A DNA stretch of 45,691 nt from a virus. Its lineage: Duplodnaviria > Heunggongvirae > Uroviricota > Caudoviricetes. Every line of letters begins with the position of its first letter. The stretch's first letter is position 1. Below are positions 1 to 45,691 of the stretch, one piece after another. The notes under the pieces were generated by a model. The model was given only the letters and a program-made list of their open reading frames with translations, made no database searches and was not told the DNA's origin. The DNA lies in IMG/VR virus record IMGVR_UViG_2531839130_000007, positions 1 through 45,691 of that record, one strand, 5' to 3'. The position numbers and the translations under genes are program-made.

Positions 1-95
1 AAATATTTGTTCACATCCTACACAAACAAGAGCGTTTCGTTGCAGGTCTGTATTCTGGTTCATTTTGTTGATACCCTTACATAGCCAATCAGCAC
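1..95 (-). pseudogene. 5' portion of a second pin-like invertase copy, partial at window edge, out of frame relative to pin
   Basis: Inverted duplicate of the pin start region (3277..3369); carries a 2-nt insertion (caacaaaatgaacc versus caacaaatgacc). Whether a full gene continues beyond position 1 cannot be seen. Confidence 0.4.
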
Positions 96-149
96 GCTGA
101 ATCTCCCGTTTAAAAGCGCAAATCATGCCATGCAGGCCGGAAACGGCCA

Positions 150-175
150 TTATCTAAAACCTTGGTTTACAGGAA
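150..175. other. gix/pix/hix-family 26-bp crossover site (left)
   Basis: ttatctaaaaccttggtttacaggaa is an imperfect dyad closely resembling the Mu gix site as remembered; an exact inverted copy lies at 3197..3222. Confidence 0.6.
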
Positions 176-1120
176 ACGGTAAATCAGGCTTCTGGCGCAT
201 TACAGAAAAACCAGAACGGCGCAGATATTCCGGGAAAAGATACCTTCACCAAAAATATTGGTGCCTGCCGCGCATATAGCGCATGGCTGAATATTGGTGG
301 CGATAGTCAGACCTGGACAACCGCACAATTCATTTCGTGGCTGGAGAGTCAGGGGGCATTTAACCATCCTTACTGGATGTGCAAAGGCTCATGGGTTTAT
401 GCAAATAATAAGGTCATTACAGATACAGGTTGCGGAAATATTTGTCTTGCAGGTGCTGTGGTGGAAGTTATTGGCACTCGCGGCGCAATGACCATACGCG
501 TTACCACGCCGAGCACGTCCAGTGGTGGCGGAATTACTAACGCTCAATTCACCTATATTAATCATGGTGATATTTATGCTCCTGGCTGGCGACGAGACTA
601 CAACACGAAAAACCAGCAGCCTGCATTTGCTTTAGGGCAAACAGGAGGCAGGGTTGCAAATGATAAAGCTGTTGGCTGGAACTGGAATAGCGGTGTTTAT
701 GATGCAGATCTCAAAGACGCAACAGCATTAATACTCCACTTCAATATGAATACGGGGAGTTGCCCTGCCGTACAGTTCCGCGTGAATTACAGGAACGGCG
801 GTATTTTTTATCGTTCAGCGCGTGATGGTTATGGATTTGAGGCTAACTGGTCAGAGTTTTACACCACGACCCGCAAACCCTCTGCGGGAGATGTTGGTGC
901 ATACACGCAGGCAGAATGTAACTCAAGGTTTATTACAGGTATTCGCCTTGGCGGTCTGTCATCTGTTCAGACATGGAATGGCCCCGGCTGGTCTGACAGG
1001 TCAGGTTATGTCGTTACGGGTTCAGTTAACGGAAACCGTGATGAATTAATTGATACAACTCAGGCAAGGCCAATTCAGTATTGCATTAATGGAACGTGGT
1101 ATAACGCGGGGAGTATTTAA
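158..1120 (+). CDS. Tail-fibre C-terminal variable cassette (Sv-like); no independent start, frame opens inside the left crossover site
   Basis: Frame is open from the TAA at 155-157 to 1120 (first ATG at 377). First 25 codons are encoded by the inverted repeat and shared with the opposite cassette. Ends ...INGTWYNAGSI, the motif shared by the other fibre proteins here. Confidence 0.65.
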   Translation, partial: NLGLQETVNQASGALQKNQNGADIPGKDTFTKNIGACRAYSAWLNIGGDSQTWTTAQFISWLESQGAFNHPYWMCKGSWVYANNKVITDTGCGNICLAGAVVEVIGTRGAMTIRVTTPSTSSGGGITNAQFTYINHGDIYAPGWRRDYNTKNQQPAFALGQTGGRVANDKAVGWNWNSGVYDADLKDATALILHFNMNTGSCPAVQFRVNYRNGGIFYRSARDGYGFEANWSEFYTTTRKPSAGDVGAYTQAECNSRFITGIRLGGLSSVQTWNGPGWSDRSGYVVTGSVNGNRDELIDTTQARPIQYCINGTWYNAGSI

Positions 1121-1122
1121 TT

Positions 1123-1656
1123 ATGATGCACTTAAAAAATATTACTGCTGGCAACCCTAAAACAAAAGAGCAATACCAGCTAACGAAACAATTTAACATC
1201 AAATGGCTTTATACAGAGGATGGGAAAAACTGGTATGAGGAACAAAAGAATTTCCAGCCAGACACTTTGAAAATGGTCTATGACCATAACGGCGTTATTA
1301 TTTGTATTGAAAAGGATGTTTCAGCAATTAATCCGGAAGGCGCAAGCGTCGTTGAATTACCTGATATTACAGCAAATCGCCGTGCTGACATTTCGGGTAA
1401 ATGGATGTTCAAAGATGGCGTAGTGGTAAAGCGAACTTATACCGAGGAAGAGCAGAGGCAGCTGGCGGAAAATGAAAAGCAAAGCCTGCTACAGCTCGTC
1501 AGGGATAAAACCCAGCTATGGGACTCACAGCTACGGCTGGGCATCATTTCCGACGAGAATAAACAAAAATTAACCGAGTGGATGCTCTATGCGCAGAAAG
1601 TCGAATCTACAGACACTTCCGGTCTGCCAGTAACGTTTCCCGAACAACCAGAATGA
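1123..1656 (+). CDS. Tail fibre assembly chaperone (Tfa / Mu U-like)
   Basis: 177 aa; N-terminus [20 protein letters not shown] is paralogous to the ORFs at 1685..2212 and 42015..42563; sits directly after a fibre-tip cassette. Confidence 0.8.
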   Translation: MMHLKNITAGNPKTKEQYQLTKQFNIKWLYTEDGKNWYEEQKNFQPDTLKMVYDHNGVIICIEKDVSAINPEGASVVELPDITANRRADISGKWMFKDGVVVKRTYTEEEQRQLAENEKQSLLQLVRDKTQLWDSQLRLGIISDENKQKLTEWMLYAQKVESTDTSGLPVTFPEQPE

Positions 1657-1684
1657 GAGAAGGCCCGCTATCGGGCCTTAATTT

Positions 1685-2212
1685 TTACTCTGGTTTTTGT
1701 GGCCATTCAGGATTTGCCGTATCCACACGGCTGACCAGAACACTGTAGCGTTCCCATGCTTCCAGTCGTGTGCGTTCCTCGTCTGTTGCCATATTCAGCC
1801 TGACAGCGCGTTCCAGCGGCTGGATGACTGATTCAGCTTCGGAAAGCAATGCGGCCTTTTGTGATTCGGCCTGTTGTTGCTGTTCGTCTGCTGTATAAAT
1901 CCGCTTAACCACAGTTCCGTCCTTAAACATCCACTTCCCTGAATCATCGGCACGACGATTGACTGTTATATCTGGAATCTCAACGACACTAAAGCCTTCG
2001 GGATTAAGCGTTGAGGCATCTTTGGTTATGGCAACAATAATATTATTTTCGTCGTAAACAATCTTTATGGTGTCTTCCTGAAAGTTATTTACTTCCTCAT
2101 ACCAGTTTTTACCGTCTTCTGTATATAACCAGATAACATCAAAATTCTTTGTTAGCTGATATTGCTCTTTTGTTTTTGGATTTCCTGACTTAATATTTTT
2201 TAAATGCTGCAT
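1685..2212 (-). CDS. Tail fibre assembly chaperone, alternative copy (U'-like)
   Basis: 175 aa, [20 protein letters not shown]...; convergent with its paralog inside the invertible segment. Confidence 0.8.
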
Positions 2213-2215
2213 AAT

Positions 2216-3214
2216 TTACACCTGTGCGACGTTATACCATGTGCCATTGATGTATTTTTGTATTGGTCTGAAGATGGCTTCATCATCGCCATCTACTTCA
2301 CCAATGATTCTTAATCCGGTAATTGCGTGTCCGGCTTTTTCATAACGACCACCACGCGCCATCAATTGAACAACACGCGTACCCAGGCGAACATCTTTCA
2401 CATAACGGGAATCAAAGTTACCGTAATCTGAGGGATTAACACGACCTGTAATATTTATGGTTTTATTACTTTGAATACTGCCGGAGACAAAGCGCATAAC
2501 ATGGACGTTATTAGCATAAACATCCAGATACCCGTCGCCATTTTGTTTAAATCCCGTGTCATTATCACCCAAAACAATCGAGTTACCACCAAGAGCACTG
2601 GATGTTCCGATGCCCAGTGCACCATTCAATTGACCGCCAGATAATGACAACGCCCCAACCTCAGCAGCAGTCGGTTTAATGTGCGAACTGTAAATTACAT
2701 ATACAGTTCCATCTGTCAGGCCTGTTGGTTTATTCGCTGTATAAGTTGGTGATGTATGAATCGTTACACTGGCGTTACTGGTATAATCCCACTGAATATT
2801 AACACCTGTGGCGTAATTACCTATTTCTACATAAATGTCATAGGTATCACCTGATGTATTCACCCATGCAAAATTAGTAAATCCAATCGAGGTCCGTCGC
2901 CATAATGCACCAGTAATACCTTTTGGATTCCCATTTCCGGCACGCAGAACCAGCTCAGAGATGCCTGCTTGATGCGAGGAGCCAACGTTATACCCTGCGC
3001 CACCAATCAGGCTTATGTAAACCACGGAACTGGCTTGTGGCATTGTTACAGTTGCCAGTTTGAACCATCCAGCACCACCACTAAAAGACATGGTTGTTGA
3101 ATTTGTTGTGCCGATATTACGCAGGAATAGTTTTTTATCGGGAATATCTGCACCGTTCTGGTTTTTCTGTAATGCACCAGAAGCCTGATTTACCGTTTCC
3201 TGTAAACCAAGGTT
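2216..3214 (-). CDS. Tail-fibre C-terminal variable cassette, alternative copy (Sv'-like)
   Basis: Frame open from the right crossover site (stop at 3215-3217) to 2216 (first ATG at 3091). Contains ALGIG..ALGGNSI.LGDNDTG.KQNGDG.LDVYAN block shared with the fibre gene at 40501..42012; ends ...INGTWYNVAQV. Confidence 0.65.
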   Translation of the reverse strand, partial: NLGLQETVNQASGALQKNQNGADIPDKKLFLRNIGTTNSTTMSFSGGAGWFKLATVTMPQASSVVYISLIGGAGYNVGSSHQAGISELVLRAGNGNPKGITGALWRRTSIGFTNFAWVNTSGDTYDIYVEIGNYATGVNIQWDYTSNASVTIHTSPTYTANKPTGLTDGTVYVIYSSHIKPTAAEVGALSLSGGQLNGALGIGTSSALGGNSIVLGDNDTGFKQNGDGYLDVYANNVHVMRFVSGSIQSNKTINITGRVNPSDYGNFDSRYVKDVRLGTRVVQLMARGGRYEKAGHAITGLRIIGEVDGDDEAIFRPIQKYINGTWYNVAQV

Positions 3215-3369
3215 TTAGATAATGGCCGTTTCCGGCCTGCATGGCATGATTTGCGCTTTTAAACGGGAGATTCAGCGTGCTGATTGGCTATGTAAGGGTA
3301 TCAACAAATGACCAGAATACAGACCTGCAACGAAACGCTCTTGTTTGTGTAGGATGTGAACAAATATTT
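3139..3369. repeat. Right arm of the inverted repeat; contains the right crossover site and the first ~93 nt of pin
   Basis: Same alignment as the left arm; identity is lost left of 3139. Confidence 0.85.
3197..3222. other. gix/pix/hix-family 26-bp crossover site (right)
   Basis: Reverse complement of the left site, 55 bp upstream of the pin start. Confidence 0.6.
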
Positions 3370-3792
3370 GAAGATAAATTAAGCGGGACAAAGACTGACC
3401 GACCGGGATTAAAACGCGCTTTAAAGCGCCTTCAACAAGGTGACACGCTGGTTGTCTGGAAACTGGATCGCCTCGGGCGAAGCATGAAACATCTGATTTC
3501 TCTCGTCGGAGAACTACGGGAGCGAGGGATTAATTTTCGCAGCCTTACTGACAGTATTGATACGTCATCCCCAATGGGGCGTTTTTTCTCCCACGTTATG
3601 GGTGCCCTGGCTGAAATGGAACGAGAACTAATCATCGAGCGAACAATGGCAGGACTTGCTGCCGCCAGAAATAAAGGCCGTATTGGTGGGCGACCACCTA
3701 AACTAACCAAAGCGGAATGGGAGCAGGCCGGGCGTTTATTAGCACAAGGAATCCCCCGCACTCTGAATCACGGGCCATCAGTTATGCACTGA
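3277..3792 (+). CDS. pin: Serine DNA invertase, Pin/Gin/Hin/Cin family; C-terminal DNA-binding helix appears missing
   Basis: [23 protein letters not shown]...[24 protein letters not shown] matches remembered Pin/Gin nearly residue for residue, then diverges ([10 protein letters not shown]-stop) where the recognition-helix region should follow. GTG start. Confidence 0.8.
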
Positions 3793-4136
3793 AAACCATA
3801 AGGTTACTGTATCCGTCAGTGGAGTGGGTTCAGTCCTTTGCAGACGAACGCTGCGGACGTGCAGGCGTTGTGTATCAGGCGTCGAATTTTGATTTTATTG
3901 GCAGTCATGAAAGCACGTTCTACGAGCTGGATGGTGAGTGGTATCACGAGATAACGATGAACGCAATTAAACGCGGTGGACAACGAGGCGTGTATTTACG
4001 GGCTAATAAAGAGCGTGCCGCAGTGCACAAATTTAATCAGTATCGCTGCATCAGATTCCTGAACAAGCGAGCAAGGAAGCGGCTAAATACTAAACTATTC
4101 AGGGCTCAGCCATACCCCAAAAGCAGTTCGGATTAG
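3717..4136 (+). pseudogene. ORF fused downstream of the truncated invertase; possibly the C-terminal remnant of a Mom-like gene
   Basis: Overlaps the pin 3' end in another frame with no convincing start. Mom assignment rests on Mu gene order (G segment, gin, com, mom) and a weak recollection of the family; not verified. Confidence 0.25.
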
Positions 4137-4225
4137 TGTTAGATAAATTCAATGAGCTTATTAACTAGACATGACATTATAGTATGGAAAACTTGATATC
4201 TTTATCCATACACGGAGCATATTAG

Positions 4226-4672
4226 ATGAAAAAAGCAAAATTGCTAATCAGTGCCATCATCGGCTTATTTGTACTAACCGCCCCTTCAGTCAGTCATGCT
4301 CAAGAAAAAGATTTTGATCCTGAAGTTGCAGCTGATGCAATCTTAAGGTCGGCAGGGATAGATCCAGATAAGAATATTGTCAATAAAGCTCCTGCCTCTG
4401 GTTTTTGGGCCTGCCACGGTATTCGTCTGCATATGGGTGTTGATATGGGGTCATGGACTGATCTTGATACTGGTGAACTATACACTCAGACAGAAACAGG
4501 CCAGATTGATGAGCAAGACAAGGATGAAAAGATTAAAGGGACTGATTATCTATATGCTTCAACCAGAAACCCTGCGGTTGTAAAGTATTTTATCGTTGAT
4601 AAATCTGGAAAAAATCTTTATATCCGAGATGATATAAAGTTCTTCAAAACATATAAATGTAAACGAAACTAA
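4226..4672 (+). CDS. Small secreted protein of unknown function (AT-rich cargo gene)
   Basis: 148 aa with typical signal peptide MKKAKLLISAIIGLFVLTAPSVSHA; locus is visibly AT-richer than its flanks, with its own AT-rich upstream region and a downstream hairpin. Confidence 0.6.
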   Translation: MKKAKLLISAIIGLFVLTAPSVSHAQEKDFDPEVAADAILRSAGIDPDKNIVNKAPASGFWACHGIRLHMGVDMGSWTDLDTGELYTQTETGQIDEQDKDEKIKGTDYLYASTRNPAVVKYFIVDKSGKNLYIRDDIKFFKTYKCKRN

Positions 4673-4701
4673 TACTGGTATACCCAAAACTGTCTCAGTT
4701 G

Positions 4702-4751
4702 AAGCGCGAAAGTTTGTATTTTCGTGTTTTGTTTGAAACGCTTTCGCGCTT
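4702..4751. terminator. Candidate bidirectional hairpin between convergent genes
   Basis: aagcgcgaaag (4702-4712) pairs with ctttcgcgctt (4741-4751), followed by a T-run; the loop is long (28 nt), so weak. Confidence 0.3.
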
Positions 4752-4764
4752 TTCATGAGCCGGC

Positions 4765-6222
4765 TCAGTCAACAAATTCACCACGTGATGCAGCAAGCAA
4801 TTTGTCGGCATCGACAGGATTTTTTGATGGATTGTTTTTCCGGGCTTCATGGAGTTCTTCCCGCAGTTCCTGATATTTCGCATCAACAGAATTTACCTGT
4901 GACTGAGCATCCAGCGGCTGCGTGTCCTGATGATGTTCAGTTGCATCCGGTTCCACTGTTTCAGCCGTTGCCTGTTCATTTGCCATTGCGCAAGATGGTT
5001 GCGGTTTTTCTTCATCATCCTGTTTTTCTTCTTCTGCTACACGCTGCGGCATTGGGGCAGAGGAGCGACCGCAGGCAATATCCACGATTTCCGGATCAGG
5101 GTTGGCATGATCGGTTTCAGTCAGCACCCTGCTCAGATATTCGGTGACACGGTGGTGGGTAGCCTCGATACCAATTGGTGCTTCTTTTACGGACGCAACC
5201 ACAATGGCGCGGGAATAATCCAGCCCGCCAGGCATGGTGATGAATTTGTCGCGGAAAACAGAAAAGGGCGGTTTATTTTCAGCGATAATTTCCTCAATGC
5301 GTTTAGCGTGTGCCGGATGAAGGTTATAGATGTCCACGTCCATTGAACGGGCCAGTACGCCAGTGGCTACGTCGCGCGCCAGTGACGTAAGATCGTGGAC
5401 GAAACCTTCGCCGCGATCGGTGAGGTTCCCGCCGCCAGCATTAGCACCGGAAGCCGTGCGAGTGATGCGTGAAACACGATTCCCTTTTCGCCATTCTTTT
5501 GTCAGAAGACCGCGATCAATGTGTTCGGTATCCAGCCAGGCTGAAATGAAATTCTTAAATTCATAGGGCTGATGTTTTTTCGTGATAGAGAAAACTGCCT
5601 TAATTGCATCAGTCAGGCGGAGCAGGGCGGCATTATCCAGAGTTGTTGGCTCTGCCATGCCGCGTATGGCCAACAGCAGATTCTGGACATAGCTGTTTTC
5701 CTGGTCCATCTCAAGAGCAGTAATGTGTTCGCGTTGTTCACGGGTGGCATGATGCAGGTATTTCCGATCCCCGGCCGCATACGTAAAAATGTGCAGAAGA
5801 CGCTGTGTGAACTGCAAAGTGGCTACAGAGACTTCGCAATCCTGGCAATCCCCGTGGGCGTCTGCCTGCGCGTTTTCTTCCTGGCCTACCGCCAGTTCTT
5901 TGGTTTCCTGAGCATTATCCTGGTGGTGAACGTCGTCTGGCGCTGCTCCCGGTTTTAGTTCCCAGGTCATGGAGTCTTTGCTGAGTTGATAGCGTTCACT
6001 CCAGGTAAAATCGATCTCACCTTCAGGGGGCAGGTCATTAACGACAGGAAAATTAGTTGCAATAGCTTTAAAATAGTTGCTCAGTTTTTTACCTGACTTA
6101 ACGATCAGGTAGTCCAGAGTGGCACAGGTTGATTCAAAATCGTCGCTTGCCCACAGGACGACGTCAGGCTCACCGGATGATTTTTTCGCTTTCCGTAAAA
6201 GGAAGAGTGGTTTTGTGCTCAT
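4765..6222 (-). CDS. recE: RecE (exonuclease VIII) N-terminal region only; nuclease domain absent
   Basis: N-terminus [46 protein letters not shown] and later blocks ([30 protein letters not shown], ...[11 protein letters not shown]) match remembered Rac RecE; ORF stops where full-length RecE continues. Gene order fits Rac. Confidence 0.6.
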
Positions 6223-6321
6223 TGTTTTTTAACCTCAACTCAGATTAAAATTACTGCGAGTGATGAATAAATGTCCCAGGTTCTTCACTCAGGCCTGCAC
6301 ACAGTGCAGGCTTTCTTTTTT

Positions 6322-6598
6322 TCAGATTTCACCGTTTAATTTCATTGCGATCAGAGTTGCCAGAAATCCGGCTTTTTTTTCTGCGGGCAGATTCTTTCCG
6401 ATGTGAACCAGGCTCATTTTTGTGACACCTTCATCAAGTGTTTTTACGTTGCCTGATGGACCATCGATATCAACCACAGTGAATGGGGTTTCTTTATTTT
6501 CTGTTTTAATTACGTAGCCAATGCGCTTTCCTTCCAGATTCACCTCGTGAACAATGTCATCGGTAGTTACAACAGTGGTTTCATAATTGGTAATCATG
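6322..6598 (-). CDS. racC: RacC-like early protein
   Basis: Start moved to the internal ATG at 6598 preceded by AAGGAGAAAAAC; gives 91 aa (MITNYETTVV...), the length and operon position of Rac RacC. Sequence identity not verified from memory. Confidence 0.45.
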
Positions 6599-6671
6599 TT
6601 TTTCTCCTTAATTAAGGTTGAGCGAATCCCTGCCATTTCTGGCATAAATTCAGTTTCGAATAGTCAATTAA

Positions 6672-6848
6672 TTAAAGTTCGTGTGCCATCTGGTCTTTTT
6701 CGGCACAAGCTTCACTGCAATATTTTCTCGGTTCGTCTTTTGATAAAGTCCCGTGCATGAAGTGAAGCATTCTTTCAATAGCTTTGCTTTCTTCAACGTC
6801 TTTTTTGCAAAGGTGGTAAGCACATTTTATTTTCTTAGTCATCACCAT
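6672..6848 (-). CDS. ydaE: YdaE-like small zinc-binding protein (not in the ORF track)
   Basis: 58 aa found by hand: [58 protein letters not shown], with CxxHxC and CxxxC pairs; start overlaps the upstream stop (ATGGTGATGA). Confidence 0.55.
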
Positions 6849-7063
6849 GACTCCGCCTTTACAGGTAAACCATCACGACCGAGGAAGACTTTAATCATGC
6901 GGTCAGTAATGCATGTTTTTGTGGTCAGGTTACGAATATAAAGTTTTCGCTTTTTAATATTGTTTGCCGAGGCAATATATGTCCGGCCTTCATGAAGAAC
7001 ATAATCGCCAGGAGTCACACACTGACGTGGTATTTCATCAGTTCCAAAGTGATGAGCAATCAT
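6842..7063 (-). CDS. kilR: KilR-like small early protein
   Basis: Internal ATG at 7063 with GGAG 6 nt upstream gives 73 aa ([15 protein letters not shown]...), matching KilR length and its position upstream of ydaE in Rac. Confidence 0.45.
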
Positions 7064-7483
7064 AATTATCTCCATTTTTACAAATGAACTTTGTCGATGC
7101 GGTGCCTGGTGCCTCCAGGTGACTGTAACCAGTTAACAATTACAGTCGGCTTTCCCACCCAAACCAATAAGGACTAACATGACTTTTAACTGTGCCGCGT
7201 GCGCTTAGCCGCATTCACCGCATCACAAAATTCACTTTAAAAAGGGCGGACATCAGCCGAACTTCAAGAAAAAAACTGATGCCGCTAGGATACACACAGC
7301 AATGTCGTTATTTACAACCGGAGGCGCACTCCCACCATTTAAATTTAACAGACAAGACCGACTCTTTATGGATATCGGAAATGCGCCTTCGTGTTGTGCC
7401 CAGTTTTATTTCACCACCTCCGGGCTTTGGTGGTTTCTGCTATACCCCTACAGCGAGAATATTGAATTAATCTAAATAATGGA

Positions 7484-7636
7484 TTAGCAAGTATTTCTGG
7501 CAAGCCAGCGACGTGCGCCCGTTTCAGTTTTGAATGTCTTGCTTTTGGCATAAGTCATGGCGGTGAACGTTCCATCCTGGTTGGGGAACACGCCACATAC
7601 CAGAGATTCGTTGTTGCCAAGATCGATAGTATCCAT
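7484..7636 (-). CDS. ydaF: YdaF-like small protein (not in the ORF track)
   Basis: 50 aa found by hand: MDTIDLGNNESLVCGVFPNQDGTFTAMTYAKSKTFKTETGARRWLARNTC; GAGGT Shine-Dalgarno upstream; first gene after the leftward promoter. Confidence 0.45.
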   Translation of the reverse strand: MDTIDLGNNESLVCGVFPNQDGTFTAMTYAKSKTFKTETGARRWLARNTC

Positions 7637-7707
7637 GTTGACCTCATTTCCCCTTAACGCCGGGTGGCGGAACTAAAACCTACAGCGCCGTGCTGTTCTT
7701 GATATAA

Positions 7708-7736
7708 ATATTAGTAACACGGATATTTTAAGTCAA
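7708..7736 (-). promoter_or_regulatory. Leftward early promoter (PL-like), sigma70-type
   Basis: Minus strand reads TTGACT - 17 nt - TAATAT, about 65 nt upstream of the ydaF-like start and downstream of the repressor terminator. Confidence 0.45.
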
Positions 7737-7833
7737 CAGTATGGCGTATGATATTTTTGATTTAGTAATTAAGTAAATGTTTTTTCAAGGGAAAAATATT
7801 AGTTATACAGCTGATTTGCAGAAGTTATGGCAC

Positions 7834-7864
7834 AAAAAAACCGACTAAGAAGTCGGTTTTTTTG
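7834..7864. terminator. Bidirectional intrinsic terminator after the repressor gene
   Basis: A-run, stem ccgact/agtcgg with loop aaga, then T-run; reads as a terminator on both strands. Confidence 0.7.
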
Positions 7865-7890
7865 TTGTGGATGGGGGTAGTGAGCGGTGG

Positions 7891-8352
7891 CTACTGGTTG
7901 CGTTTCTTTAGTGCCAGCATGTTCTCGAAAGCTTCCTCGTAGAGCTTGTTTAGTCCACGTAGCTGGTTAAGGAGTTTGGCTTTTTCTGACGCAGGTAGAA
8001 TCTCGAAGAGGTTAAGTAACTCTGCCTGTTCTTCATTGACCAGCCTCCATCCTTTGCCTGAAAAGCTATCATCATAAGTATCTGATGATCTTACATAATT
8101 CATTAAGTCTTTAAGGTCTTCTCGAATGTCCTCTGGTTTTACCTTTAACAGAGCCGCAAATTTTAGCGCAGCGTCGGTATTTACCGGTATCTTGCCGTTC
8201 AGATACTGACTAACGGTGCCTTGAGATTCGAATCCCAACAACTCAGCCGCCAGCTCTTGAGTCAGCTTCAGCTCTTTTTTTCTTGCATTCCATGCGGCTT
8301 TTAAATTCTTGCTCGCTTCTGGAGTTGCAATCACTTCGCGTGTTTTTTTCAT
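7891..8352 (-). CDS. Prophage repressor, XRE-family HTH (RacR-like)
   Basis: 153 aa with N-terminal HTH (LTQELAAELLGFESQGTVSQYLNGK); divergent from a Cro-like gene across a 100-bp intergenic region. Confidence 0.7.
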   Translation of the reverse strand: MKKTREVIATPEASKNLKAAWNARKKELKLTQELAAELLGFESQGTVSQYLNGKIPVNTDAALKFAALLKVKPEDIREDLKDLMNYVRSSDTYDDSFSGKGWRLVNEEQAELLNLFEILPASEKAKLLNQLRGLNKLYEEAFENMLALKKRNQ

Positions 8353-8453
8353 ACATAGAGTTTATTTGTTTTACCAATATTATCAAAGATAGTCTGACTA
8401 TTGATCTTTAAAATTAGTGGAGCTAATATTTGCTCGAAGCATAACGTAGAAGG

Positions 8454-8735
8454 TTGGCTATGAACTTAAGAGACTATTTAAAAGAGAAACATATCACCCA
8501 GCTACAGTTTGGGAAGCTAACGGGTTTATCTCAGGTGCATGTAAGTCGAGTGCTGGGGGGCCATGAAAGATTCAGCCCTGAAAAAGCATTACGTGTTGCT
8601 GAAGTAACGAATTTCGAGGTTACACCTCATGAACTCCGTCCTGATATCTACCCGAATCCGACCGATGGTTTACCTGTTGGATGTAAGGCTAACACACAAA
8701 ATGCACAGGAGTTGATTCATGAAAATCAGGCATGA
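8454..8735 (+). CDS. ydaS: Cro-like HTH regulator (YdaS-like)
   Basis: 93 aa, HTH ITQLQFGKLTGLSQVHVSRVLGG; divergent from the repressor and immediately upstream of the YdaT-like gene. Confidence 0.6.
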   Translation: MAMNLRDYLKEKHITQLQFGKLTGLSQVHVSRVLGGHERFSPEKALRVAEVTNFEVTPHELRPDIYPNPTDGLPVGCKANTQNAQELIHENQA

Positions 8736-9141
8736 GCACATTGAATCAGTGCTGTTAGCCCTGGCCGCTGAAAAAGGGCAGGCATGGGTAGCCAATGCAA
8801 TTACTGAAGAATATCTGCGCCAGGGGGGCGGCGAATTGCCCCTGGTACCAGGCAAGGACTGGAACAATCAGCAGAATATCTATCACCGTTGGTTGAAAGG
8901 TGAAACGAAAGCGCAAAGGGAAAAAATTCAGAAACTGATCCCTGCGGTTTTGGCAATTCTTCCGCGCGAGCTGCGTCACCGACTCTGCATCTTCGATACC
9001 CTGGAACGCCGTGCATTACTGGCGGCGCAGGAAGCGTTGAGTACGGCAATTGATGCGCATGATGATGCAGTCCAGGCCGTTTACCGGAAAGCACATTTCA
9101 GCGGCGGCGGTTCGTCCGGCGATTCTGTTGTTGTTCATTAA
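8719..9141 (+). CDS. ydaT: YdaT-like protein (CII-position regulator or toxin-like)
   Basis: 140 aa, MKIRHEHIESVLLALAAEKGQAWVANAITEEYLRQGGGELPLVPGKDW... matches remembered Rac YdaT in length and sequence. Confidence 0.6.
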   Translation: MKIRHEHIESVLLALAAEKGQAWVANAITEEYLRQGGGELPLVPGKDWNNQQNIYHRWLKGETKAQREKIQKLIPAVLAILPRELRHRLCIFDTLERRALLAAQEALSTAIDAHDDAVQAVYRKAHFSGGGSSGDSVVVH

Positions 9142-9160
9142 GTGAATAGGGTAACTAACA

Positions 9161-9574
9161 ATGAAAATCAAACCGTTTATCAATGCTGGAAATCTTACTC
9201 CCGGCGAACTACGAGACTGGCTCCTGAAACTTGCAAAAAATGCAGAAATTGCGGGTTGGGGTACAGAAACTTCGGTTCGGAAGCTTCAGAGCGCAGAACT
9301 TAGCCTGCGCTCAGTTATGGACGATTTATCTCCAAGAATTAATTTTCTGGGGTCAGAGCAAATAATTCGTTCGGAAGATCACTCCAGCGAAGTTGCGGAA
9401 GTTCTGAATACTCTGAGGATAACTTTTGCTGCCGTTCGCGATATTCAACGAACCATTCTCTCATTGATTTCTCAGCTTCAAGAAATTGATAGTCGCATTC
9501 CTGACGGGGGTCATAGAGAGCGTCTTCCAGAATGTGAAGAGCAAGGACAGGGGAAACAGATAAGGGATCAGTAA
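9161..9574 (+). CDS. Hypothetical early protein
   Basis: 137 aa on the rightward early strand; weak Shine-Dalgarno; overlaps an antisense ORF (9339..9794) that has a strong SD, so the true gene is ambiguous. Confidence 0.4.
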   Translation: MKIKPFINAGNLTPGELRDWLLKLAKNAEIAGWGTETSVRKLQSAELSLRSVMDDLSPRINFLGSEQIIRSEDHSSEVAEVLNTLRITFAAVRDIQRTILSLISQLQEIDSRIPDGGHRERLPECEEQGQGKQIRDQ

Positions 9575-9873
9575 TACGTTTTTCACTTGCCTGGTATAGC
9601 AATCTCGCCAGCGAATCATAGCTACTGGGGCTCAGGAGAGAATCCCGTGAGTGATTTGTAAGAATCAGGTGGAAGCGGGTGAGAACTATAGCCCTGCATG
9701 TTACCAGGTTAACCATGTCGTGGTCGTGCTGGTTAATTTTGTACACAGTGCGCATGTGATTTTTAATTTTTTGGCAAACAGCCATTAAAGACATGTCGAA
9801 CCTCCTTTGGTTCTGTTGATTGGGGAATCACAGATTATATCCGGAGGAAGGTTCGACACCAGATGAGGCAATT

Positions 9874-10998
9874 ATGGTTAAGGCTAAAAACATGCCAAAT
9901 CCCATGCCAAAAACTAAGGCAAACAATGAGCCTTATCGCAAGGTAAAAATAACGATATGGGATGATCCCAAATTTAGGGCGTTATCTCCTCTGCCTCCAA
10001 GTGGACAGAGTTTGTTTATTTATCTGCTGACCAGTCCATTTACCGGGATTATTCCTGGGTTGTTTAAAGCCGGGCGGGCAGCAATGGCCGAAGAGTTGGG
10101 GTGGGATATCGAAGCCTTTGACTTAGCCTTAGGAGAAGCCATGAATCTTGGCATGGTGAAAGCAGATATCAAAGCCAGAGTTTTTTGGCTCCCGAATGCT
10201 GCGAAACACAATCCGCCAAACTCGATAAATGTCATTAAATCCTGGGCAAAGGCATTCGCTTTAATTCCTGATTGTCCTCTCAAATGGGAGGCCAGGGAAT
10301 CGCTGAGAGCCGCATCCTACGGGGTTTCTGAGGCTTTGGGGATGGCATTCGATAAGGCAATCCCTTTGCCTGAGGATAAGCCTAAGGATAAGGCTAACGC
10401 TTTGTCATGCGGTATCCAGATAACAGATAACAGATATATAAACCCCACACATAACGCGCGCGTGCGCGAGAGTGCTCCTGCCAGTGAGGCAAATGGCGTG
10501 CCGTTGCAAACAGCGGAACCTGATTACCTGGAAGGCCTGAGCGAACCCATCGGGAAATTTCCGATGACCGATGGCTGGCATCCGTCGCCGGATTTTCGAC
10601 GACGGGCTGCGCTGTGGGGCGTGGCTCTTCCTGAGCCGGAATTTACACCAGCTGAACTTGCCGCCTTCCGGGACTACTGGGCAGCGGAGGGTAAAGTTTT
10701 CACGCAGGTTCAGTGGGAGCAGAAATTCGCCCGTCACGTAAATCACGTCAGGGCGCAGGCTAAACCAGTCAGCAAGGGGGTAAAACATGCAGCAGCACCA
10801 GGTGGCACCGCATCACGGGCAGTTCAGGAAATTCGGGCAGCACGTGAGCAGTGGGAACGTGAAAACGGATTTATCAGCGACGGAAACGGCCTGGAAGCTG
10901 TGGGAACTCATGGGGGAGGTTTATTCGAACCGCTGGACCCAGAAGAACGGGGCCGCACCTTCGAAGCTCTGGATTGCACAGATTGGCGCGATGACTGA
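9874..10998 (+). CDS. Replication initiation / primosomal protein (O-position; DnaT-like C-terminal region)
   Basis: Start moved to ATG 9874 (GAGG upstream). Position after the immunity genes and before a P-like gene; C-terminal block resembles DnaT-type domains. Confidence 0.55.
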
Positions 10999-11452
10999 GC
11001 AGCAAATCCGACAGGTCTGCCGCCAGTGCATGGACCGCTGCCGGGCGGGTGAAACATGGCCTCCGGACCTGGCTGAGTTTGTGGCACTGATTTCGGAGAG
11101 TGGGGCAAATCCATTTGGTCTGACGGTGGATGCTGTGATGGAGGAGTACCGCCGCTGGCGCAATGAGTCCTGGCGATACGACGGAAGCGATAAATACCCA
11201 TGGACTCAGCCTGTGCTGTATCACATTTGCCTCGAGATGCGTTCAAAGGGGATTGAGCGCCAGATGACCGAAGGGGAATTAAAACAGCTTGCAGAACGGC
11301 AGCTGACGAAATGGGCAAAGCATGTTAGTAACGGCCTGAGCGTTCCGCCAGTCCGGCGACAACTGGCGGCACCCAAACGCCCGTCGGGGCCAACGCCAAT
11401 TGAGTTACTGAAACAGGAATATGAACGCCGGAAAGCGGCTGGGTTTGTTTGA
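10787..11452 (+). CDS. Replication protein P-like (helicase loader); start uncertain
   Basis: C-terminal half resembles remembered lambda P (...[22 protein letters not shown]...LSVPPV versus lambda ...ESYPWKSNAHYWLVTNLYQNM...IPEPV). Candidate starts 10787, 10910 or 10991; overlaps the upstream gene. Confidence 0.55.
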
Positions 11453-11486
11453 GTTGAGAAGTAATTTTTACCGGGAGGAAATTTTA

Positions 11487-12239
11487 ATGGAGACCGTTTT
11501 TGACGCACTGAAAGCGATGGGAAAAGCTACGTCGGTAGAACTGGCTGCGCGACTTGATATCAGTCGTGAAGAAGTGCTGAACGAACTATGGGAACTGAAA
11601 AAGGCTGGTTTCGTTGATAAAAGCGCGTACACCTGGCGTGTGGCTGATAACAACGTTCAGCAGGAACAGCCAGCGCCAGAAGAACAGCCGGAAGAAACCT
11701 CCACGGCGACAGTAGCGAAAATCTCAGAGTGCGATTTAACCGCGACGATTGAACAACGCGGACCACAAACGGCTGATGAGCTGGCTACATTGTTTGGTAC
11801 CACATCACGCAAAGTGGCTTCAACGCTGGCAATGGCAATCAGCAAAGGCCGTCTGATTCGTGCTAATCAGGACGGTAAATTTCGTTACTGTATGCCGGGC
11901 GATAATTTACCAGCAGAGCCGAAAGCAGCATCGGTAGCGGAAACTGATGGTAAAGCCTTTCCTCAGCCTGCATGCGTTGCGTTACCAGTACAGGAAGCTG
12001 CAACACAGGAAGATATTAAAACAGAGACTGTGGCGGACATTGTGCAGTCGCTGCCATCGTTTACTGAAACGAGAGCGGATGACCTGGTTTTACCATCGCT
12101 GCATATGGCAAACCGCGAACTGCGTCGGGCGAAAAATCATGTCCAGAAGTGGGAGCGAGTCTGCGCCGCGCTGCGGGAGCTGAACAAGCACCGGGATATT
12201 CTTCGGGATATTACCGCGAACGGAGAGCTGCAGCGGTGA
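11487..12239 (+). CDS. Hypothetical protein with N-terminal winged-helix-like region
   Basis: Start at ATG 11487 (GGGAGG upstream): [43 protein letters not shown]. Confidence 0.55.
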
Positions 12240-12553
12240 GTGGCTGGAAGAAGTGGTACGAGGCTGAAATCATGATACTCCGGCAGTGTGCGGGAACGAT
12301 GACGGTCGAAAGCATTGGGAGGCTGACCGGTCGTACAGGTGATGCTGTCAGAACGAAAGCGCGGGAACTGGGTGTCAGCCTGATGTTACGGGGTGATTAT
12401 CACCAGTCAACAAAATATCCGCAGAGTGATATTGAACTGGCGCGACAGCTGCATCAGCGTGGCGTACCCAGGAGAGAAATCGCCAGAAAATTTGGAATGC
12501 CGTTGCGCACAGTGAATAACTACGTTTATTTCGACAGGAGAGTTCAGGAGTGA
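12236..12553 (+). CDS. Hypothetical DNA-binding protein (two HTH-like segments)
   Basis: GTG start overlapping the upstream stop (GTGA); segments [22 protein letters not shown] and [15 protein letters not shown]. Confidence 0.45.
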
Positions 12554-13484: not shown

Positions 13485-13775
13485 CCTGGCCGGAGGCATT
13501 CACAACGACAGGAATTGCAATGGCGTCGGCACTTGTTGTGTATTCGGTTTGCAGATGGGGATAAAAACGGTTTGCGGGGAAATCTTAGTTAAGTAGAATG
13601 ACTGCGGGTGCTTGAGGCTATCTGTCTCAGGCATGAACACCAAAAGGCAGATAGAGAAAAGCCCCAGTTAACATTACGCGTCCTGCAAGACGCTTAACAT
13701 TAATCTGAGGCCCAATCTATGTCTCACAAATGTAGGTTAGCCTCTTACGTGCCGAAAGGCAAGGAGAAGCAGGCT

Positions 13776-13931
13776 ATGAAGCAGCAAAAGGCGATGTTAA
13801 TCGCCCTTATCGTCATCTGTTTAACCGTCATAGTGACGGCACTGGTAACGAGGAAAGACCTCTGCGAGGTACGAATCCGAACCGGCCAGACGGAGGTCGC
13901 TGTCTTCACAGCTTACGAACCTGAGGAGTAA
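13776..13931 (+). CDS. hokD: Hok/Gef-family type I toxin (HokD/RelF-like)
   Basis: MKQQKAMLIALIVICLTVIVTALVTRKDLCEVRIRTGQTEVAVFTAYEPEE: single TM helix plus conserved Cys and RTG...VAAF-like tail; AGGAGAAG Shine-Dalgarno; structured leader and terminator. Confidence 0.85.
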   Translation: MKQQKAMLIALIVICLTVIVTALVTRKDLCEVRIRTGQTEVAVFTAYEPEE

Positions 13932-16243: not shown

Positions 16244-16319
<76 letters not shown>

Positions 16320-16322
16320 TAT

Positions 16323-16397
<75 letters not shown>

Positions 16398-36448: not shown

Positions 36449-36796
36449 ATGAGAACATGGGGCCGCGTAACCGACGCGAACGGCAACAAAAAATGGGTTG
36501 CTATAGAATCTGACGCCAACGGTGATTTCTCCTACGGCTGGCTGACGACGCTCATTCAGACGTTAAAGCTGGGGTTGGGGGAGTCGCCGTTTTACGCGAA
36601 TTACGGCATTCCAGCGCAGCAGTGCATCGTGCAGCAGATTTACCCGGACTACTATGTGAACATGGTTCAGCAACAGTATGCCGGGTATTTTGCATCGCTG
36701 GCAATTTCAAAAGTGGATGGGGCAGAGAACCCCACCTATAACATCGATGTTGTGTTTTTTAACGGAACCAGTTACCGGACGCAGGTTCCGGTTTGA
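36449..36796 (+). CDS. Small baseplate protein (gpW-position)
   Basis: Start at ATG 36449; 115 aa, the size and position expected for a gpW-like wedge protein between spike and J-like genes. Confidence 0.4.
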   Translation: MRTWGRVTDANGNKKWVAIESDANGDFSYGWLTTLIQTLKLGLGESPFYANYGIPAQQCIVQQIYPDYYVNMVQQQYAGYFASLAISKVDGAENPTYNIDVVFFNGTSYRTQVPV

Positions 36797-37335
36797 GGCA
36801 AGTTTTCGGGCATCAATTGGGCCAGTGGCGTATTAAGAAGTTCATCGCGTGGCATGACAATCCATCCACTTTTGCGTAGTAAGTGAATTGCCCATTCTGT
36901 GGTTATAACTGAGCCTGATTTGTGATGCTCAATGTGGGTAACCGATCCGTTTCTGACGCGCATGATGATGTCAACATTCAGAGGGGATTGTGTGCTGGTA
37001 GTTTCTTTGCGTAGTTTCTTTTCGCACTCGATGAAGTATCGGCGGATCTGGCGTCCTTTTTCGTTGCGCTCGACCATTGCCAGTTCTTTGGCGGTGTCCA
37101 GGGTGAGGTGGTAGTCCTTGCGGTTGTGGCCTCCCCGGCCTTTTGCTTCCCGAATTTGGGAAGCAATCACATAGTCCTGATTTTCTACGAATTCATACTC
37201 GCTAAGTCGCTCGGTGATCCAAGTGGCAAAGCGCTTACCTACTTCGAGAAAGGCATGCAGATCGCGAGCGTTGCATAGAAGGGTGGTTTCGTTTGAGATA
37301 GTTCCGTTGAAAACGGGGATCAGTTGGGTTGTCAT
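36772..37335 (-). CDS. Phage antirepressor (Ant, KilA-C-type domain)
   Basis: 187 aa; block DYHLTLDTAKELAMVERNEKGRQIRRYFIECEKKL matches the antirepressor C-terminal domain as remembered; AAGAGG upstream of ATG 37335; opposite strand to the tail operon. Confidence 0.65.
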   Translation of the reverse strand: MTTQLIPVFNGTISNETTLLCNARDLHAFLEVGKRFATWITERLSEYEFVENQDYVIASQIREAKGRGGHNRKDYHLTLDTAKELAMVERNEKGRQIRRYFIECEKKLRKETTSTQSPLNVDIIMRVRNGSVTHIEHHKSGSVITTEWAIHLLRKSGWIVMPRDELLNTPLAQLMPENLPQTGTCVR

Positions 37336-37614
37336 GATGACCTCTTGTATCTTTTTCGAAGAAGAACCAAAGTGGCGTCGGGAGGTTCGAAACGGCTACA
37401 AGTACCGCGGACTTATTCCCCTTTCGGGTGTTGTATTCGTCGCCCTCCCGACATTGATCGGGGATGTGGTTGCACATGATGCAACCACTGAAAAAATAGG
37501 CATAAAAAATCCAACACTGACGGGGTTGGTTGCGTACCGCTTGTAAGAGGTTTCGACGCCTCAGTTCGGATTGTAGCCAGAGTTGGATGCCGTAGTCAAT
37601 TTAATGATAGTGCA

Positions 37615-42014: not shown

Positions 42015-42563
42015 ATGATGCACTTAAAAAATCTTACGGCACAAAACCCTAAAACAATTGAGCAATACCAGCTGGCACGACAGCATAAATTTTTATTGTG
42101 GCTGTTCTCCGATGATGGTCAGGAATGGCACGAAGCCCAGGAAAAATTTCAGCCAGACACTCTGAAAGTTATTTATGTTGAAACTGGCGAAGTGGTCTGG
42201 ATCGGAAAAGACATCACCTCAATCTGCCCGGAAAATAAAAGTGTGATTGAGTTGCCGGATATTACCGCTAATCGTCGCATTGAGGCGTCGGGATACTGGT
42301 TTTATCGCAATGATGAATTTGTTTTCGACCACAAACTTAAAGCGGAAGATGAGCGTGATGCACTGTTAAAACAGGCCAGCATCATGACCAGCGAATGGGA
42401 AAAAGACCTGCTGCTGGGATTAATCAGTGACGAAGACAGGGAGAAACTGAAAGCGTACCGCATTTACGCGAAATCGCTGCAGGCGATGGATTTCAACATT
42501 ATCACTGATAAAACCTCATATAACGCCATTGAATGGCCCGTCTCTCCGGAAGCCTCTTCCTGA
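42015..42563 (+). CDS. Tail fibre assembly chaperone (Tfa)
   Basis: 182 aa, MMHLKNLTAQNPKTIEQYQL...PDITANRR, paralog of the two chaperone genes in the invertible segment. Confidence 0.8.
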   Translation: MMHLKNLTAQNPKTIEQYQLARQHKFLLWLFSDDGQEWHEAQEKFQPDTLKVIYVETGEVVWIGKDITSICPENKSVIELPDITANRRIEASGYWFYRNDEFVFDHKLKAEDERDALLKQASIMTSEWEKDLLLGLISDEDREKLKAYRIYAKSLQAMDFNIITDKTSYNAIEWPVSPEASS

Positions 42564-42587
42564 TTTAATTTATCGCGAGAAAAACTA

Positions 42588-45500
42588 TGTCTGTAGTGAT
42601 ATCAGGTGCGCTGATTGATGGCGCAGGCATCCCCATGTCCGGATGCCACATAATTCTGAAATCCCGGGTAAACACCTCAGAGGTGGTGATGCGCACAGTT
42701 TCCGACGTGGTGACAGGAAACTGTGGCGAGTACTGTTTTAAAGCGCAGACCGGAAAATATTGCGTATATCTGAAACAGGACTGGCGCGACGAGTACTGTG
42801 TTGGCGACATTGCTGTATACGACGACTCAAAGCCCGGTACGCTGAACGACTTTCTGACTGCCCTTGATGAAGGTGATTTAAAGCCGGATGTAGTGAAACG
42901 CTTTGAGGAAATGGTGGCGCAGGCGCAGCAGAGCGCGGAAGCGGCAGCGGAGAGCGAACGACAGGCCGGGAAACATGTCGCTGATGCGCAACAAATTAAG
43001 AGCGCCTGCCAGACACTGGCGGATAACGTACAGCAGAATGCAGAATCCGTTGCCGAAGATAAAAATCAGGTGGCATTACTGGCGTCATCTGCCACACAGG
43101 ATGCGGCCCGCGCAGATCAGGCTGTTAAAGACGCAGACAAAATCGTCGATAAGGCTGTTGATAAACTCGATGAAGCCGCAACGCTGACCGGCGAGGCAAA
43201 AGCCAGCGCCGAAGCGGCAGCAAAAAGCGAGCAGAGCGCGAAACAGCACAAGGACGAGGCGCAACGGATAGTTGATGACCTGAAGGGAAGCAATGCTTCC
43301 ACAACAGAAAAAGGCCTGGTGCAACTCTGTAGTGATACAGACAACGACAGCGAGGAACTGGCAGCCACGCCAAAAGCCGTCAAAACCGTCATGGACGAGA
43401 CGAAAACAAAAGCGCCACTGGACAGCCCGGCGTTTACCGGCACGCCCACCACACCAACCCCGCCGGACGATGCGACCGGGCTGGAGATGGCGAACGCGGC
43501 ATTTGTCCGCAAACTGCTTGCCGCGCTGGTTGACTCATCACCGGAAGCCCTGGACACGCTGAACGAGCTGGCAGCGGCGCTGGGAAATGACCCGGAGTTC
43601 GCGACAACAATCATGAACGCGCTGGCGGGTAAACAACCACTAAGCGACGTGTTAACCGCAATCAGTAATCTGGAAGAACGGGCAGATAATCTTCTGTGCT
43701 TTAATCAGGACGGGAATGCTTCGCTGTCTCCACTGTCAGAAAAAGCCCGGTCACTGCTGGCGCAGGCCACAGTGGAAGCCATGCGCAATGAGCTTGAGCT
43801 GAAAAGCGCAGCGGTAAAGGATATCCAGACAGACCTTTACGACAGCACGGAAGGCCGTGTTGCGCTGCCAGGTGCATTTGGTTACGGAATGACGGACGCC
43901 GGAGCGCGTTCAATTATTGCCAGCGATATGGCGACTGTAGCCAGAACCGCTCACAACCTGCACCCGGGACGCTATTACACCTTTGCCACACGAACGGAAG
44001 AAATAACCGGGATAACAGAAATTATCTGGCTGGATAATGGCGGGGGCGACAAAACCAGCCAGACAGCAACAAAGCTGGTTCTGTTTTTTGGAAAAGACGG
44101 ACGGATTCTTATGACCGTTCGTGGCGATAATATCTCCGCCCCGGTCACCTGGACGAATCTGACACCACAACTTGGCAATGCAGCACAGAAGGATGCGCAG
44201 GAGAATATTTACGACCGCACCGAAGGCCGTCTGGCGATTCCCGGCATGTTTGGATTCGGGAAAGTATTTTTCATCGGCGACAGGACCGAGTTTAAAACAG
44301 AGGCCGATTTTCTCCGCTGGGTAAAAACGGCAAATCCCGGACGCTATGCCGTTTATGCAGATACAAATGCGGTAATACAGGGCGTGCTGTTCAAGGGTAC
44401 CGTTGAAATTATCTGGCCGGAACCTCAAATCAGCCATGATACGGCATATGTGGCCAAAATCATTATTTTTTACGGTATTAACGGTCATATTTATTACAAT
44501 CGCTACTGGACTACCGGAGGTGGTTATCTGGTTGGCTGGGAAAACCTGAAAGTCAACGAGGCTTCACTCCGGGCACTGATTGAAACCCGAGCGCCACTGA
44601 ACAGTCCGGCACTGACCGGAACGCCGTCCACGCCAACACCACCGGATGATGCAGCAGGTAATGAAATAGCCAATGCGGCGTTTGTCCGCAAACTGCTCGC
44701 CACGCTGGTTGGCTCATCACCGGAAGCCCTGGACACGCTGAACGAGCTGGCAGCGGCACTGGGCAATGACCCGAACTTTGCGACAACCGTCACTAATGCA
44801 CTGGCAGGTAAACAGCCGCTTAACGATACGTTAACCAGTATCAGCAAGGCAGGGGTGGGACAAAACTCTCTCCTTTATTTTGGTGATAACTTTAAAGCAA
44901 AAGCAATTCCATGCAGCAACAAGGCTCGCTCATTACTGGCACGAAACACGCCTGAATCCATGCGCGCGGAGCTTGAACTGAAAGCGGCTGCGACGATGGA
45001 ACCCCAGACCGATATCCGTGACCGCACACCCGGCAGGCTGGCGCTACCGGGCGCTTTTGGCTTTGGTAAGGCATTCAGTAACACAGAAGCCCTGACATTT
45101 AACGGGCAGGCTGATTTTGCTGAATGGCTGAAGGAAGCCATGCCGGGGCGTTATGCGGTCAGTATTGCGGACTCTTCCACGCTGCTGGCTGGCACAACGA
45201 AATTTAACGGCATCATTGATGTGATGTGGTCACCCTTTGATAACGACGAGTCAGACACAGTGCGTAAATTCAAAACGCTGCTGTGTTTTAACCAGTATTA
45301 CGAAGGTGAGCACAGTATTCATCGCCTGACTTACCGCTGGAGTGGAAACAACTGGAATGCAACAGTAAGCCCCATTATTTACGACGGCGATTCGCTGGCC
45401 TTCCTGCTGTCCAGGACGGCGGGCTCAGGCTCATATTTCAAATACCCGGCAGTGGGTGTTCCTGTGCTGGCTGTTTATCGCGGAACAACTTCCGGGGATA

Positions 45501-45691
45501 AAGAAATCAATATTGGCCTGGGTGATGTGGTGCAGGGGTCACAACTGGGCGGAGTTAATCTTTCGTGCGCAATATCTTCTGCTGGGGTTGGCTCCTACAA
45601 TTCCGCACCGAGTGTAGGAGCTACAGGGTACACTTTCCCGGGGCGTTATATGGCGCTATCCGGGGTCAGGGACTCTAAAGGAATAACCGGT
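42588..45691 (+). CDS. Long side tail fibre protein (Stf-like), 3' end beyond the window
   Basis: Frame read by hand is open from ATG 42588 to the window end (over 1030 codons; absent from the ORF track because no stop). Contains repeated PxFTGTPTTPTPPDDA...FVRKLL...LNELAAALGNDP modules typical of lambdoid side tail fibres. Confidence 0.75.
43412..43670 (+). repeat. Intragenic direct repeat, copy 1, within the side tail fibre gene
   Basis: About 260 bp, ~85% identical to 44591..44847 with a ~45-bp perfect core (catcaccggaagccctggacacgctgaacgagctggcagcggc). Confidence 0.8.
44591..44847 (+). repeat. Intragenic direct repeat, copy 2, within the side tail fibre gene
   Basis: Matches 43412..43670; copies are 1179 bp apart (a multiple of 3). 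Confidence 0.8.

Follow-up and report, generated by a model that had tools for sequence, protein, structure and literature searches.

The early-left operon of the Rac prophage of K-12 is arranged ydaF-sieB-kilR-ydaE-racC-recE-recT-ralR-xisR-intR, and in its RecE (866 aa) the nuclease domain comprises residues 564-866 while the N-terminal region is without assigned function (PMC11611040). That the N-terminal two-thirds can be separated from the C-terminal nuclease domain is seen from sbcA-type rearrangements and from the engineered RecE forms 588/602-866 of recombineering. The closest intact relatives of the operon studied here encode a RecE of 1040 aa with a C-terminal region longer than that of K-12 RecE. 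The nearest of these, the prophage of strain UMNF18 (97.8% DNA identity over 4769-7699), carries recE (1040 aa)-recT-ralR-xisR-intR adjoining ttcA, and no sieB is present between kilR and the DUF1391 gene.

The DNA analysed, hereafter the window, is the entire contig AQER01000007.1 (45,691 bp) of the draft assembly GCA_000356665.2, as found by exact look-up of the 485-aa protein described below. It has the order ydaF, kilR, ydaE, racC, recE in common with K-12 Rac but is without sieB, ydaG and racR, has a different repressor, and its recE is interrupted. The other part of the locus is like the phages Mu and D108 (Muvirus) in its G segment, gin, mom, D108 gene 56, R3-R2-R1 sites and terminal CA, in the many host sites with N-Y-S-R-N flanks and the 5-bp duplication found in a relative, and in a target gene that is split with its N-terminal fragment ending at the element terminus. 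It differs from D108 in the right-end tip, being ...CATGAGCCGGCTCA here and ...CGTGCGCCGCTTCA in D108, and in a deletion of ~652 bp which fuses gin to mom and removes com. Mu/D108 insertions disrupt host genes, and here the disrupted gene belongs to another prophage, giving a nested prophage.

The early-left operon and its RecE fragment

Five ORFs are found on the minus strand of 4765-7636, and family models assign them in order to ydaF, kilR, ydaE, racC and the N-terminal fragment of RecE (Table 1). The gene order and sizes given in the original prediction (YdaF-like 50 aa, KilR-like 73 aa, YdaE-like 58 aa, RacC-like 91 aa, then RecE) were confirmed by the Pfam and NCBIfam models, and synteny and family matches agree on a Rac-like early-left operon. 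The ORF at 6322-6645 encodes 107 aa, of which the RacC model PRK09790 covers residues 17-107, that is, the last 91, and the ORF at 6842-7075 encodes 77 aa, of which the KilR model covers residues 5-77, the last 73.

The relationship of the 485-aa protein to RecE, on which that prediction depended, is documented by a match to Pfam Exonuc_VIII (PF06630) at 5e-68 over residues 2-182 and by an alignment with residues 1-485 of UMNF18 RecE (intact, 1040 aa) at 95% identity. With the NCBIfam exodeoxyribonuclease VIII model (NF007259 equivalog) it scored 733.7 bits over model positions 1-479 of 877 only, below the curated full-length cutoff of 1269 bits. The noted stop at 485 aa is correct, the ORF at 4765-6222 and the profile match both showing the N-terminal part. 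Judged by its sequence, the 485-aa ORF is a fragment of a RecE gene and not a RecE enzyme. The protein had also been described as stopping right where the exonuclease domain begins, and this was not upheld: by alignment D485 (codon GAC) corresponds to D468 of the 866-aa K-12 RecE and to residue 485 of UMNF18 RecE, and the cut lies ~96 residues upstream of the nuclease domain (564-866, PMC11611040). The K-12 protein reads ...SRGEFVD/GISDPNDPKWV... across the breakpoint (slash). Since GEFVD is continued there by GISDP, base 4768 belongs to recE and the stop to Mu; the TGA of the ORF is the reverse complement of the Mu terminal TCA (4765..4767).

Identity to K-12 RecE is 96% for residues 1-96 and 91% for residues 236-485. 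The region between them, residues 97-235, has 25% identity to that of K-12, exceeds it by 17 residues and matches intact UMNF18 RecE at 96% identity. Of the earlier description of this central region as shorter and divergent, only the divergence holds, and because the region is nearly the same in an intact RecE it is taken as an allelic form and not as decay.

The Mu/D108-like right end

On sequence grounds, window positions 1-4767 make up the right end of a transposable prophage of the Mu/D108 type that lies within recE. In a DNA search of phage records, 3142-4762 matched the D108/Mu right end (gin, mom, gene 56, attR) with 87-95% identity, and the homology of recE to Rac-like prophages begins at 4768-4769. 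Of the Mu late gene set, the G segment and gin are 95% identical to those of D108; gin, however, is cut short, com has been lost and the first ~117 codons of mom are missing. The transposase genes A and B are outside the contig. The shortened invertase is without most of its C-terminal HTH, only positions 1-25 of 45 of the HTH_7 profile being matched, and the D108 match stops at 3760. The BLAST segments 3141-3760 and 3751-4762 correspond to D108 locus positions 1501-2120 and 2773-3737, and the 3' end of gin, com and the 5' part of mom have been lost in the ~652 bp deletion, with the junction at ~3751-3760. Caudo_TAP domains were found on the 175-aa and 177-aa products of the G segment.

The arrangement of attR is canonical, with R1 and R2 in one orientation, R3 inverted and a terminal CA. 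The D108 record terminates in ...CGCGCTTTTCGTGCGCCGCTTCA and the Mu-like part of the window in ...CGCGCTTTTCATGAGCCGGCTCA, which is followed by recE GTCAACAAATTC... A hybrid lambdoid phage with a recombined Mu tail-fibre/gin module was also considered, and is ruled out by the true Mu terminus, the MuA sites and the same end base in ten other contexts.

Table 1. Positions of the features of the Mu/D108-like end and of the early-left operon in the window.
Feature	Position	Strand	Basis or remark
Inverted copy of gin upstream region and first gin codons	1..149	-	Equivalent to 3223-3369; contig end
Mu-type invertible G segment	150..3222		95.6% identity to D108 S'/U' region; D108 repeat_region annotation
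gix inverted repeats bounding the G segment	150-185 and 3187-3222		
Tail-fibre/tail-fibre-assembly gene set	377-1120, 1123-1656	+	ORFs in G segment
Tail-fibre/tail-fibre-assembly gene set	1685-2212, 2216-3091	-	ORFs in G segment
gin', serine invertase cut after ~codon 161, 171-aa ORF	3277..3792	+	Pfam Resolvase 1.8e-49
mom' remnant	3717..4136	+	Pfam Mom 2e-39, profile positions 73-202 of 202
D108-specific gene 56 homolog, 148 aa, signal-peptide-like N-terminus	4226..4672	+	Position and DNA match; last gene before Mu right end
Mu right attachment end	4696..4767		Ends ...GGCTCA at 4767; alignment to D108 right end
MuA site R3, inverted	4696-4712	+	Consensus scan, 1 mismatch
MuA site R2	about 4720-4736	-	By-eye alignment to annotated D108 site
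MuA site R1	4741-4757	-	Consensus scan, 0 mismatches to YMYNWRAARYRCGAAAR
485-aa ORF	4765-6222	-	recE' codons and TGA stop at 4765..4767
Putative 5-bp Mu target site, GTCAA	4768..4772		Fits Mu target consensus; duplication expected at left junction, off contig
recE'	4768..6222	-	Codons 1-485 of Rac-type exonuclease VIII gene; N-terminal region, without nuclease domain
racC-like, 91 aa	6322..6597	-	NCBIfam PRK09790, 9e-59
ydaE-like zinc-binding protein gene, 58 aa	6672..6848	-	NCBIfam YdaE_coli, 5e-25
kilR (FtsZ inhibitor), 73 aa	6842..7063	-	NCBIfam PRK11354, 4e-48
ydaF-like DUF1391 gene, 50 aa	7484..7636	-	Pfam DUF1391, 3e-29
Prophage repressor, HTH_3, DicA-like, not RacR	7891..8352	-	Upstream of early-left operon; family models

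The same Mu end at other host sites

By exact protein look-up, an identical 148-aa gene-56 protein was found beside the same end in ten other E. coli contigs. Save for two single-base variants these match the window up to ...GAGCCGGCTCA and then diverge fully at the same base, continuing past the Mu end into ten unrelated host loci which include uspC/flhDC, asnS/pncB, xanthine permease, xylH, a lambdoid lom/tail-fibre region and iaaA/gsiA. As the homology stops at the same base in eleven loci, the terminus of the element is window position 4767. With N-Y-(G/C)-R-N used as the Mu target consensus, 7 of the 11 flanking pentamers fit, GTCAA included, against 12.5% by chance. A complete Mu-like prophage with 92% identity resides inside agaC of strain N1286, where both halves of the gene are retained, annotated as pseudogene fragments and flanked by a 5-bp ATAAA duplication.

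Although com is gone from this Mu lineage and neither mom nor gin is complete, the lineage is found at many different E. coli sites, and it may merit a brief look of its own. No variant with the gin-mom deletion was found at high identity in the complete E. coli genomes searched.

The contig ends and the genes absent from the contig

Inverted repeats join the left contig end to the far side of the G segment (1-59/3311-3369, 100%; 64-238/3134-3308, 97%), and the match to D108 is collinear but inverted. The first 149 bases reflect molecules with a flipped G segment, and the configuration is as expected. Since the left break of the contig falls at the invertible G segment of Mu, the assembler stopped there; the right end of the contig is within a prophage tail-fibre gene.

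The C-terminus of RecE (K-12 and UMNF18 types), RecT, RalR, XisR, IntR, SieB, YdaG and RacR gave no tblastn match in the 45.7-kb window. A RecE fragment without nuclease domain, as originally described, is therefore confirmed for the window as a whole, and with all frames covered there is no out-of-frame continuation of recE on this contig that could encode the domain. The reported absence of recT and int/xis holds in the same sense only, since the contig ends inside Mu and absence from the window says nothing on recT, ralR, xis and int beyond it. The window has no sieB, as had been noted, and because prophages with intact recE, recT, xis and int, such as that of UMNF18, are also without sieB, its absence is a lineage polymorphism.

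Recurrence of the junction and searches for the distal half

An identical 40-bp junction was present in GCA_000357145.2 (APYJ01) and in the Logan assembly of run SRR446929. The exact 485-aa protein was read on only 5 contigs, from a few samples and with the same junction, and 0 of 5426 complete E. coli genomes contained the junction. The check proposed earlier, whether the same truncation point recurs in other genomes, thus returned only a few related assemblies, and it looks like one insertion event carried by these and not like a recurrent truncation point. The right junction had no exact-pattern match in IMG/VR viral contigs. The predicted left junction, ATCCC-GTCAA-TGTATTGATTCACTTGAAG, in which the left-end sequence was assumed from D108 and N1286, was found in none of the GTDB representatives, IMG/VR and JGI metagenome contigs, collections in which the draft assembly is not expected. 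With the 555-aa C-terminal part of UMNF18 RecE as protein query many partial RecE were obtained, and those whose N-termini were read, together with three cluster listings, were contig-end partials with none derived from a Mu left end; protein clustering hides fragments within clusters, so that this negative for distal recE does not equal absence. A search for literature on the assembly accessions gave none.

Discussion

It is very probable that a Mu/D108-like phage transposed into a resident prophage of the Rac-like lambdoid type, between recE codons 485 and 486 (K-12 D468/G469), and that the distal genes are beyond Mu. Observed directly were the nature of the Mu end and its precise location, the breakpoint in recE, the artefact at the contig end and the reappearance of the junction in a few related assemblies. 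The original prediction of an operon retaining only the N-terminal part of RecE was accurate in that the ORF ends after this part, but the cause, a Mu-like insertion, was missed. The upstream part of recE runs directly into the Mu right end, the terminal 5'-TCA-3' of which is read as TGA on the recE strand. Distal recE with the whole nuclease domain, recT, ralR, xis and int would follow beyond a Mu prophage of ~37 kb, after the GTCAA duplication, probably ~33 kb further on and on another contig. On the plus strand of the window the expected left junction would read recT - recE codons 1040 to 486 - GTCAA - TGTATTGATTC..., and the split gene with a 5-bp duplication seen for agaC in N1286 would presumably apply to recE here. 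With the break at K-12 residue 468 the distal fragment would still contain the nuclease domain in full, which may be compared to sbcA and the engineered RecE forms, although in those it is the C-terminal part that is kept and expressed, whereas the N-terminal part is what is seen here.

That the Mu-like phage inserted in or near recE and that the distal part of recE, recT, ralR, xis and int were later deleted, by Mu or otherwise, so that the N-terminal part is truly the sole remnant of RecE, is improbable. Replicative transposition of Mu can produce adjacent deletions. The distal half was not recovered from the protein clusters or by exact scans of three public collections, the C-terminus of RecE, RecT, Xis and Int are not in the window, and since the junction is in none of the 5426 complete E. 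coli genomes, there is no finished sequence with both of its sides. The window is silent on the far side, however, as it ends inside Mu, and the flanking pentamer GTCAA fits the Mu target consensus, as would be expected of a primary insertion, while the relative in N1286 has retained both gene halves with the 5-bp duplication. A chimera, in which the assembler placed the Mu right end against recE although the two are not adjacent in the cell, could be suspected from the artefact visible at the left contig end, the inverted gin flank. It is nevertheless very unlikely because three assemblies, the Logan assembly of SRR446929 being an independent one, share the junction exactly at the Mu terminus; the join is precisely at the terminal CA and in a consensus Mu target, and no shared repeat is present to mislead an assembler.

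The chance that the 485-aa protein functions by itself and is under selection, as a natural RecE variant reduced to one domain, is close to negligible. The ORF is intact from its native start, the function of the N-terminal region is unassigned, and in linear-linear recombination the full-length protein does not act like the isolated nuclease domain (PMC11611040), which counts for such a product. Against it, the terminal bases of a mobile element provide the stop codon, the exact protein was read on only the 5 contigs with the one junction, and the closest relatives encode full-length RecE. The most fitting interpretation of the product is a gene fragment cut off by an insertion, and not a purposefully retained domain.

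With transposition into recE as the preferred explanation, a transcript from the early-left promoter would, from established Mu and lambdoid biology, yield at most the 485-aa fragment and then run antisense into Mu. As early-left transcription yields no more of RecE than this, the RecET module would be disconnected from its promoter. The insertion would be polar, with expression of RecE and RecT from the early-left promoter lost and xis/int uncoupled from it. The outer prophage, enlarged by ~37 kb, would probably be too large for packaging as one unit after excision.

A further consequence, which is itself unlikely, concerns the Mu repressor. The repressor gene c of D108 reads toward the left end, in the same direction as recE, and a simple scan of the D108 left end showed nothing like a terminator from c to the terminus. 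If the left end here is of the D108 type, an in-frame GTG would start an ORF, VNQYID-GISDP..., that extends into distal recE. Read-through from Mu c could then constitutively express an N-truncated but nuclease-complete ExoVIII together with RecT, an sbcA-like activation of RecET, while the early-left promoter would give only the inert N-terminal fragment. If true, this would be a natural sbcA-like activation of RecET by a nested prophage.

The locus is an insertion-interrupted recE in a nested prophage, seen in a fragmented draft assembly, and as such an already known kind of event. To list it as a RecE variant, or as a prophage without recT, int and xis, would be incorrect. The locus offers a clear instance of one prophage inside another, the outer of which would probably be left unable to package itself.

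The outer Rac-like prophage

In the closest relatives of the Rac-like prophage, the intact RecE is 1040 aa long (strain UMNF18, L002 4332-7454), whereas that of K-12 Rac has 866 aa (L006 4787-7387). The C-terminal, nuclease-containing region of the 1040-aa protein has large additional segments and aligns poorly with K-12 RecE, and RecT of the UMNF18 prophage is also longer, with 350 aa against 269 aa.

No sieB, ydaG or racR was found within window positions 7076-7483 and 7637-7890, and the immunity repressor of this prophage is a 153-aa DicA-like HTH_3 protein. The same immunity arrangement was found in UMNF18, and the immunity region of this Rac-like group therefore differs from that of K-12 Rac.

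An ORF of the hok/gef family adjoins the sok RNA listed in the table below, and a hok/sok toxin-antitoxin locus is thus present within the Rac-like prophage. The tRNA pair is located in the late-regulatory region, and the sRNA-Xcc1 match and the antirepressor-domain ORF are positioned between tail genes.

RNA features and an adjoining ORF of the outer prophage
Feature	Position	Strand	Evidence
sok antitoxin RNA	13606-13781	+	Rfam, 120 bits
Two tRNA genes, adjacent	16244-16394	+	Rfam tRNA, 74 and 66 bits
sRNA-Xcc1 match	37369-37452	-	Rfam, 78 bits (gathering score 53)
AntA/AntB antirepressor-domain ORF	36772-37335	-	Adjoins sRNA-Xcc1 match

The right contig end reaches into a long prophage tail-fibre gene (window 42500-45691) with 88-91% identity to many E. 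coli prophages and plasmids. This end is a second assembly break driven by repeats, and the right boundary of the outer prophage therefore also lies off the contig.

The Mu-like prophage and its gin-mom deletion

Relative to D108, approximately 652 bp are deleted in this Mu-like lineage (window 3277-4136, junction at about 3751-3760), by which com is lost and the invertase gene gin, up to about codon 161, is fused to mom from about codon 117. The truncated gin lacks most of its HTH.

Both orientations of the invertible G segment are represented (window 1-238 compared with 3134-3369; positions 1429-4866 in L007-L016, the ten other E. coli contigs with an identical gene-56 protein). The flipped-state junction is visible at the left end of the window contig, and among the other ten the tail-fibre ORF to which the constant part is joined measures 500 aa in some and 488 aa in others. 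The segment therefore inverts even though this gin is missing its DNA-binding end; a different invertase may supply the activity in trans. At the contig end, the copy differs by 2 bp at window 60-63, probably an end-of-contig error.

In one of these contigs (L011 positions 6540-12447, GCA_044906255.1) the same Mu-like phage has as neighbours a lom-like gene and the tail-fibre gene of a lambdoid phage, and this genome is a second instance of its nesting within a lambdoid prophage. The 171-aa resolvase ORF is common to all ten contigs, in which the phage occupies ten different host loci; transposition has evidently continued in this lineage, which is Mom-less and has a truncated gin.
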